Positions 20,380-20,520 of a DNA stretch of 34,254 nucleotides are shown one piece after another (the first letter of the stretch is position 1; the number at the start of each line of letters is the position of its first letter). The stretch is from IMG/VR virus record IMGVR_UViG_2529292908_000011. One strand, 5' to 3'. Source of the stretch: a virus (taxonomy: Duplodnaviria; Heunggongvirae; Uroviricota; Caudoviricetes). The notes beneath the pieces are model-generated. The model was given only the letters and a program-made list of their open reading frames with translations. It was not told the DNA's origin and made no database searches. Position numbers and translations under genes: made by a program.

Positions 20380-20520
20380 CTCATGCCGCAAATGTTAACT
20401 GCTGCCTGGTTAACATTTGCTGAAAAAGCCTGTTAACATTTTTTCCGCACAACAAACTGAATAATAAAGATAAAAACCGCAAAAATGCCCGGGCAGCCAG
20501 TTAACATGTTAACTGCCCTG
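20380..20520. other. putative cos / terminase-recognition region with four GTTAAC-core palindromic elements
   Basis: AAATGTTAAC-N9-GTTAACATTT at 20390-20418, TGTTAACATTTTTT at 20431-20444 and the perfect palindrome CAGTTAACATGTTAACTG near 20498-20515, between the HNH and terminase small subunit genes. Confidence 0.4.

Follow-up and report, generated by a model that had tools for sequence, protein, structure and literature searches.

A conserved array of GTTAAC half-sites beside the cohesive-end site of Stx-type Escherichia coli prophages is a candidate recognition site for the small terminase subunit

An HNH endonuclease gene adjoining the cohesive-end (cos) site is the known arrangement of packaging of the HK97 type, in which cos is cut to leave 3' overhangs. 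Phage lambda and phage 21 share cosN but differ in cosB and in the N-terminus of gpNu1, which swap together, and G1P, the small terminase subunit (TerS) of the SPP1/SF6 systems, binds several repeated boxes in intrinsically bent DNA. To our knowledge, the reading of DNA by TerS in HNH-dependent cos phages has so far been characterised only for HK97, the TerS of which is unrelated to the one described here. We analysed a 34,254-nt stretch of tailed-phage DNA (IMG/VR record IMGVR_UViG_2529292908_000011; hereafter the window, to which all positions refer), and in it the 290-bp non-coding gap (20318-20607) between an HNH gene and terS. We consider it probable that this gap is the HNH-dependent, 3'-overhang cos of a lambdoid, long-tailed, Stx (Shiga toxin)-type E. 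coli prophage, and that its GTTAAC-core elements form an array of five half-sites, predicted to be bound by the helix-turn-helix (HTH) domain of TerS. Most likely, the elements would be the terminase-recognition part of cos, comparable to cosB, and not the cut site. The position of cos in this phage group is already published and this is not a new kind of element; the position and the polarity of the ends were established by others in a 95%-identical phage (PMC7946995). To this we add the anatomy of the array, its pattern of conservation, a concerted switch of the sites and of the DNA-binding domain of TerS, the fold of that domain, and the capture of the block by a satellite.

Both genes flanking the gap lie on the minus strand, and in the direction of the phage the order is HNH, gap, terS, terL and a gene in which the prohead protease is fused to the major capsid protein. 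Five GTTAAC cores, at 20394, 20409, 20432, 20500 and 20508, make up four elements in the gap, here called A, B, C1 and C2, of which A is a perfect 18-bp palindrome (Table 1). The initial annotation, made from the letters of the window alone, was correct in the count, the coordinates and the palindrome; it did not give the strand of the genes, nor the longer consensus common to all sites, aAATGTTAACyrG. All five cores in the gap extend to ATGTTAAC. Over the whole window, GTTAAC occurs 19 times, as compared with 5.8 ± 2.2 expected, and 19 copies were reached in none of 100 shuffles; ATGTTAAC occurs six times as compared with 1.03 expected, again reached in 0/100 shuffles, and five of the six copies fall inside 122 bp. 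These five half-sites, which occur in either orientation, lie on the terS side of the cut, at +32 to +159 from it. The T-tracts of the spacer between A and B are conserved, and this spacer may be an intrinsic bend. A scan for terminators found none, and in a search for an IHF site in this spacer the consensus WATCAANNNNTTR was matched only with two mismatches, which is the background rate. Elsewhere in the window, a second tight cluster, GTTAATTGTTAACTGGTTAACG (30020-30042, with cores at 30027 and 30035), has the same 8-bp spacing as palindrome A and has TGTTAACTGG in common with it. It lies at the 3' end of a 181-aa open reading frame (ORF) of the prophage early region for which there was no Pfam match, and the resemblance may be a coincidence.

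For the induced Stx1 phage Lys8385Vzw, which is 95% identical to the window, a 10-nt 3' cos overhang, CGCCCCCCCT, was reported from PhageTerm (PMC7946995). The record of this phage (MT225100) starts with CTCACGCAGAG, 229 bp upstream of terS, and ends with CACCGCCCCCCCT (at greater length, GGACACCGCCCCCCCT). When aligned to the window these ends fall inside the gap on a C-rich decamer, CGCGCCCCCT, which differs from CGCCCCCCCT by one substitution (9/10 bases identical) and places the terS start at +230 from the cut. The initial annotation had proposed a candidate cos site in the gap, with the genome ends at the palindromes themselves. The first part agrees with the Lys8385Vzw ends, but the second does not, as the predicted cut (20556..20547) lies about 30 bp outside the interval of 20380-20520 that had been singled out, with the nearest GTTAAC element 32 nt downstream of it. 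The boundaries of the records of phi330 and of a Burkholderia phage were also considered as end maps and were set aside; they lie inside terS or 13-15 nt off the Lys8385Vzw cut, and are probably arbitrary.

The sequence that directly follows the cut, CTCACGCAGAGAAAAAATTCCCG, with its A6 tract, is nearly identical across E. coli, Erwinia, Morganella and the Burkholderia phage. On the other side of the cut, the G7 run is kept in the Enterobacterales loci L129-L150 and in a satellite copy described below. In the PPompW prophages of O157-type strains (L297:2775-4233; PPompW_132418, LC567822), the IS110-family element ISEc20 stands exactly at the G-run, at the equivalent of about 20595 in the window. 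Beyond ISEc20 the HNH and lysis genes are gone in these prophages and the tRNAs and Q follow directly, with the cut site and the repeats kept; the G-run is either a preferred target of ISEc20 or the border of a deletion mediated by the insertion sequence.

Conservation was assessed in five diverged copies of the locus with a long gap, namely the window type, two copies from a sister lineage, one from a relative with a 65%-identical TerS, and the satellite copy. Invariant columns made up 90% of the overhang (nine of its ten positions), 74% of the stretch from +1 to +31 and 80-90% of elements B, C1 and C2, as compared with 34-38% of the spacers and 7% of the stretch between the last repeat and the terS start. 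In element B, eight of ten columns are invariant, and the two that change are those of a concerted switch from GTTAAC to GTTTAT. Indeed, the sister lineage, represented by E. coli STEC1587 and a second contig, has GTTTAT or GTTTAC at each of the five sites in the same architecture, with ATAAACATGTTTAT in place of A, ATGTTTAT in place of B, ATGTTTAC in place of C1 and GTAAACAT in place of C2. The lineage with the 65%-identical TerS has kept GTTAAC and has gained a sixth copy.

The two types diverge in a compact cassette of DNA, which begins about 20 nt past the cut (~20525) and ends near terS codon 110 (~19990), with flanks of at least 90% identity. Between STEC1587 and the window type, the YlcI/YnfO-family protein encoded beyond HNH is 100% identical, TerL 97.1% and HNH 96.7%, and TerS 76.8%; the differences in TerS are concentrated in its N-terminal domain, with the changes K19R, S22A, I24V, A25E, A30E, T32S and V35C, and in the linker. 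In an AlphaFold2 (AF2) model, TerS has a four-helix N-terminal domain (residues 4-14, 19-25, 33-41 and 44-56; pLDDT >92), and the top Foldseek matches of this domain were structures of the DNA-binding domain of the SF6 small terminase (4zc3, TM 0.84; 2cmp, TM 0.81; rmsd 1.6-2.4 Å), to which it has weak sequence matches of ~30% identity over 56 residues. Residues 32 and 35 fall in the model at the N-cap and in the second HTH helix (33-41).

To compare a wider range of loci, we aligned homologues of TerS and fetched the corresponding loci from one genome per species and from viral contigs; this protein-anchored set was used in place of viral-contig matches to the 14-mer GTTAACATGTTAAC. Lys-Thr-Ala (K-T-A) at the start of the recognition helix is found with GTTAAC or GTTAAT in the non-coding half-sites, in the E. 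coli type, locus L210, the Citrobacter group, Serratia, Pantoea, Morganella and distant relatives. Lys-Ser-Ala (K-S-A) is found with GTTTAC or GTTTAT, in two long-gap loci and in about 37 loci with a short gap between the cut and terS. At the level of sequence, it appears that the sites co-vary with the N-terminal DNA-binding domain of TerS, the cut site and TerL staying constant. YlcI/YnfO was considered as a binder or specificity factor and was rejected, as its 100% identity across the two motif classes speaks against it.

We infer the identity of the binder from this pattern, and the repeats might instead bind a different protein, be it HNH, TerL, another regulator of the phage or a nucleoid protein of the host. 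HNH does differ at 4 of its 121 residues between the motif classes, and a promoter scan returned a single weak match (9/12) on the plus strand (20410-20439), which is formed by the motifs and points antisense into HNH. Yet a host factor would not demand the joint change of five sites between phages of the same host. Moreover, it is the HTH domain of TerS that changes across the switch, at seven positions, YlcI being identical and HNH and TerL each about 97% identical; the divergent cassette comprises the sites and the 5' part of terS only, and no regulator co-varies with the sites. Because TerS alone changes with the sites, we regard a different binder as unlikely. Late lambdoid transcription from pR' reads through this region, and we know of no regulator that acts in the gap between HNH and terS.

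The block has also been taken up by a satellite. A phage-inducible chromosomal island (PICI)-like element of ~9.4 kb in E. coli CH427 (L008; NZ_CM166357, about 639961-649334) lies between yljB/cspD and clpS and carries at its end, next to clpS, a cos block (L007:3001-3175) that is 80% identical to that of the phage; this satellite form was found in 50 complete E. coli genomes. The similarity of the island to the phage is limited to these 175 bp, which start 12 nt ahead of the overhang and stop at the last repeat (C2); every one of the five ATGTTAAC in them is intact, whereas the spacers are different. The island codes for an integrase, AlpA, a YlcI/YnfO-like protein (L008:10211-10516) longer than its relative in the window, an Icd-like protein, a RepA-type AAA_25 helicase and a fusion of ClpP with Phage_capsid_4; it has no terminase gene, and no terS follows its cos block. 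The capsid fusion of the island was considered as a homologue of the capsid fusion of the phage and was rejected, as the two show no similarity and belong to different Pfam families. Satellites that use the terminase of a helper keep the cos of that helper (the cos site in satellites is summarised in PMC6092414). For this reason, and because the similarity stops at the last repeat, the working unit would be about 175 bp plus the G-run, with the repeats included.

The island also bears on the idea that the inverted repeats act as RNA hairpins in the late transcript, in the processing or translation of terS, the concerted changes being compensatory. C1 and C2 could form a 12-bp stem with a 9-nt loop, and the complementarity is kept in the GTTTAY lineage. 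However, the island keeps the block with no terS after it, and the 70 nt directly before the terS ribosome-binding site are the least conserved part. In addition, element B has no partner and changes likewise, all stems use one and the same 8-mer, which pairing does not need, and the folding of the gap transcript is not significant (z = -1.54; 17/200 shuffles fold as well). A role as RNA hairpins thus seems to us quite improbable.

Outside E. coli, elements B and C are absent, and the decamer with its flanks is the most widely conserved part across genera. The GGACACCGCGCCCCCTCTCACGCACAGAAAAAATTCCCCTCTGGAGGGTGTAAACATGTTAACAGCG block is kept far better than the adjoining 3' end of HNH, as is the G-run about 45 nt upstream, in Atlantibacter, Kluyvera, Enterobacter, Citrobacter, Kosakonia, Erwinia, Serratia, Salmonella phage FSL SP-016 and others. 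In the short-gap relatives, terS starts about 40-50 nt after the cut, and the position of element A is taken by GGAGGGTGTAAACATGTTAACA, in which GGAGGG is the ribosome-binding site and ATG TTA ACA (Met-Leu-Thr) is the start of terS. Palindrome A is therefore homologous to the start region of the ancestral terS, its Shine-Dalgarno spacer and start codon. Between element A and the present start of terS, GTG CTG ACA, the E. coli Stx-type lineage has ~190 extra bp. GTTAAC does not merely reflect Met-Leu-Thr codons, because it is kept just upstream of the start codon in distant relatives in which terS starts with ATG GCT TTA; similarly, Pantoea (ATG CTG ACA start) has two GTTAAC upstream, and Citrobacter has GTTAACGTGTTAAC. 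It had been suggested along with the candidate site that absence of the motifs from related phages would speak against it. The outcome is mixed: other genera keep the equivalent of the palindrome only, where it overlaps the terS start, and in the one E. coli sister lineage GTTTAY has replaced GTTAAC at 5/5 sites.

Two further observations concern these regions. A hydrophobic ORF of 24 codons, MLTGCPGIFAVFIFIIQFVVRKKC (20433-20508, minus strand), starts at the ATG of element A and resembles a small membrane peptide, its ATG being the vestige of the ancestral terS start codon; it was rejected as a gene, as it is unconserved and meets a stop after 5 codons in STEC1587. The cos core, GACCGC followed by CCCTCACGCGCAGAAAATTTCCCC and then by GTTAA(C) at the terS start, is still recognisable in Burkholderia phage vB_CB2a (L295/L296) and in the IMG/VR contigs L262-L288. 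In these contigs TerS is only 30-38% identical, and conservation to such a depth is unusual for a packaging signal that is non-coding.

Given the homology of element A to the terS start, the elements could be seen as inert duplications of that start (ATG TTA AC), the working signal being the cut site and the A-tract block. Element B (ATGTTAACAGGC) resembles ATGTTAACAGCG, and one element suffices for the short-gap phages. Inert remnants, however, would not be 80-90% invariant next to spacers that are 7-38% invariant, would not switch in concert at five places, and would not be kept so precisely by a satellite, and we hold this explanation to be highly improbable. Scarcely credible, lastly, is the literal reading of the initial annotation, that the palindromes are the terminase or HNH cut sites and that the ends lie within 20380-20520: nicking sites are typically palindromic, lambda cosN being one example, and the ends are known from a relative and not from the window prophage, but the PhageTerm ends of that 95%-identical phage map at CGCCCCCCCT, upstream of every element, and it is the C-rich decamer with its flanks, not B and C, that is shared across genera.

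Several points weigh against the reading that we prefer, that of an array bound by TerS next to the cut. The ends derive from PhageTerm in one relative, rather than from direct end sequencing or from the window prophage. The association of Thr or Ser at position 32 with the motif reflects few independent lineages, with about two switches, and two distant loci, L289 and L240, combine K-S-A with GTTAAC. Short-gap relatives with Ser32 still have GTTAAC at the right half-site; we attribute this to coding constraint, but alternatively it could be that residue 32 does not read that base. The invariant A-tract at +12 to +17 recalls the one in the TerS site of HK97, and TerS could make an additional contact there or even its main one. 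As no IHF site was found, the analogy to cosB is incomplete. Both the role of TerS as the binder and a requirement for the array at the start or end of packaging are what we infer from sequence comparison. Finally, TerS of HK97 uses a single, 15-bp, non-palindromic site at +15 to +29, with an A/T tract at +24 to +29 (PMC11331095).

Under the TerS-bound array, packaging might proceed as follows. Oligomers of TerS would engage the half-sites through their HTH domains and so mark the DNA as that of the phage, and the T-rich spacer between A and B may bend and bring the sites together. TerL and HNH would then be positioned on the C-rich decamer, would generate the 10-nt 3' overhang at CGCGCCCCCT, and packaging would run from the cut towards terS. 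In evolutionary terms, element A would stem from the ancestral terS start, and the E. coli lineage would have gained the ~190 bp along with the extra sites.

More tentatively, it is possible that the long-tailed Stx-type prophages of E. coli fall into at least two natural classes of packaging specificity, one with GTTAAC and Thr32/Val35 and the other with GTTTAY and Ser32/Cys35. The classes would be swapped as a compact cassette, made up of the five repeats, the TerS DNA-binding domain and the linker, within near-identical HNH/TerL modules; PICI-like islands and defective prophages, that of the window among them, would carry a class-specific cos, and a match of class would decide on mobilisation. 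If so, it is this match that would determine which resident elements, including toxin-carrying defective prophages, a helper mobilises. The two types would also offer a natural two-allele system for the reading of DNA by a Terminase_2-type TerS in an HNH-dependent cos phage. Our literature search, which covered open-access papers and so leaves room for an earlier description, turned up no account of the repeat array, of a cosB in HNH-type E. coli phages, of a pair of specificity classes or of capture by a PICI-like element.

Table 1. Parts of the cos region and the genes around it. Positions are those of the window; distances with a plus sign are counted from the predicted cut.
Feature	Position	Strand	Basis or remarks
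HNH endonuclease gene, 121 aa, last gene before cos	20608..20973	-	Pfam HNH PF01844, E=3.7e-8
G7 run, 41-51 nt before the cut; may belong to cos, on its upstream side	20592..20598	-	in every relative examined
Cohesive-end sequence (cosN equivalent) CGCGCCCCCT, predicted 10-nt 3' overhang	20547..20556	-	aligned to Lys8385Vzw ends
Post-cut block CTCACGCAGAGAAAAAATTCCCG..., with A6 tract at +12..+17 (20535..20530)	20516..20546	-	74% invariant columns, diverged long-gap copies
Element A, predicted site: 18-bp perfect palindrome CAGTTAACATGTTAACTG, two abutting ATGTTAAC half-sites	20498..20515	-	+32..+49
A-B spacer, T-rich; T-tracts conserved, remainder variable	20442..20497	-	34% invariant columns, mostly T-runs
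Element B, predicted single site AAATGTTAAC	20432..20441	-	+106..+115
Elements C1/C2: perfect 12-bp inverted repeat, 9-nt spacer; last conserved part of cos	20388..20420	-	+127..+159
Arm of the inverted repeat, GTTAACATTTGC	20409..20420		
Arm of the inverted repeat, GCAAATGTTAAC	20388..20399		
terS, 187 aa, GTG start (GTG CTG ACA)	19754..20317	-	Pfam Terminase_2 PF03592, E=1.3e-8, over the curated cut-off
TerS N-terminal HTH DNA-binding domain, residues 1-56	20317..20150	-	AF2 model, Foldseek
terL, two ORFs in the window owing to a 1-nt deletion near 19489	18097..19757	-	TerL_nuclease PF20441; indel relative to intact relative L001

Pfam assigned HNH, Terminase_2 and TerL_nuclease in that order along the locus, and the RefSeq annotation of an identical copy gives the same order, the neighbours of the gap in this 100%-identical copy being annotated as HNH endonuclease and terminase small subunit. 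A Shine-Dalgarno sequence, GGAGG, precedes terS at about 20321-20328. TerL is intact in relatives, with 553 aa and both TerL_ATPase (PF03354) and TerL_nuclease (PF20441); in the window the gene is frameshifted, and PF20441 was found on the C-terminal ORF. TerL is accordingly of the HK97/Terminase_1 type. TerS, by contrast, matched Terminase_2 only and folds like the SF6 DNA-binding domain, and is not of the HK97 gp1 family. The initial annotation had described packaging here as HK97-like; TerL and HNH bear this out, and the description is to be limited to these two because TerS is of the Terminase_2, SF6/SPP1 type. A small gene of the YlcI/YnfO family (DUF3950; 21015-21215, plus strand) adjoins HNH and cos on the opposite strand, as in other lambdoid prophages.

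At 95-100% identity, the gap and its flanks recur in 1281 of 5426 complete E. coli genomes, a single genome having as many as eight copies, and in 94 phage records, almost all of them long-tailed Stx1a, Stx2a or Stx2c converting phages and relatives (BP-4795, 2851, YYZ-2008, 1717). About a quarter of complete E. coli genomes thus have this head and packaging module, as do most long-tailed Stx1, Stx2a and Stx2c phages. Enterohaemorrhagic strains often have up to 7-8 copies, many of them defective. As compared with L001, terL (~19489) and the portal gene (~14535 and ~13410) of the window show 1-nt deletions, which alternatively could be assembly errors; about 10 kb are gone after 21894 (lysis genes, tRNAs, a methyltransferase and the Q antiterminator), and there are internal deletions in the tape-measure and tail J genes (4751-4862, 10617). 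The prophage remnant also contains an IS1 InsAB' transposase gene (28458-29156, plus strand), and an ORF for a Hok/Gef-type toxin, MKQQKAMLIALIVICLTVIVTALVTRKDLCEVRIRTGQTEVAVFTVYEPEE (22370-22582, minus strand), which is hokD-like in the annotation of a relative. Because the prophage is too degraded to package itself, with terL and the portal gene frameshifted and lysis genes, Q and parts of the tail missing, its cos, which is intact, would be usable only in trans, through a co-resident helper. This might explain how a prophage as degraded as this one could still move. More generally, the cut position together with the probable specificity repeats should allow a prediction of which defective prophages and satellites are packaged in trans by which helper.

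Among the systems described, the cos satellites, SaPIbov5 with phi12 and phiSLT and the E. coli PICI EcCICFT073, resemble the island of CH427 in carrying int, alpA, a helicase gene, a capsid-type gene and a cos of the helper family, and in having no terminase of their own. EcCICFT073, however, has a cosN of the lambda type and a different cosB, and needs Rpp, whereas the island has an HNH-type cut site and all five repeats. With G1P and pac of SPP1 and SF6, the locus shares a TerS with an N-terminal DNA-binding domain of the same fold and Pfam family; unlike it, SPP1 and SF6 package by the headful (pac) mechanism, lack HNH and have no defined cohesive ends. With HK97 (gp1 TerS, gp2 TerL and gp74 HNH), it shares the order of HNH, cos, terS and terL, the 10-nt 3' overhang, the Pfam nuclease domain of TerL, an ancestral distance of ~40-50 nt from the cut to terS, and an A/T tract shortly after the cut, the left end of HK97 having a T-run at +24 to +30 that is comparable to the A6 tract here and overlaps the A/T tract of the HK97 TerS site. 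It differs from HK97 in its SF6/SPP1-like TerS and in its five candidate half-sites, which reach to +159, and the cos sequences of the two are unrelated. Lambda, with cosN and a cosB of R3-I1-R2-R1 bound by the winged HTH of gpNu1, differs in having a 5' overhang of 12 nt where a 3' overhang of 10 nt is found here; the present locus further has an HNH partner, a TerS of Terminase_2 and not of the Nu1 family, and half-sites of 8-10 bp with a palindromic GTTAAC core, and there is no sequence homology between the two. In its layout, nevertheless, lambda cos is alike in having repeats in both orientations on the terS side of the cut, over ~130 bp, and a small terminase with an N-terminal HTH. In both cases satellites carry the site (PMC6092414), and in both, relatives keep the cut site and TerL while swapping the sites together with the N-terminus of TerS.

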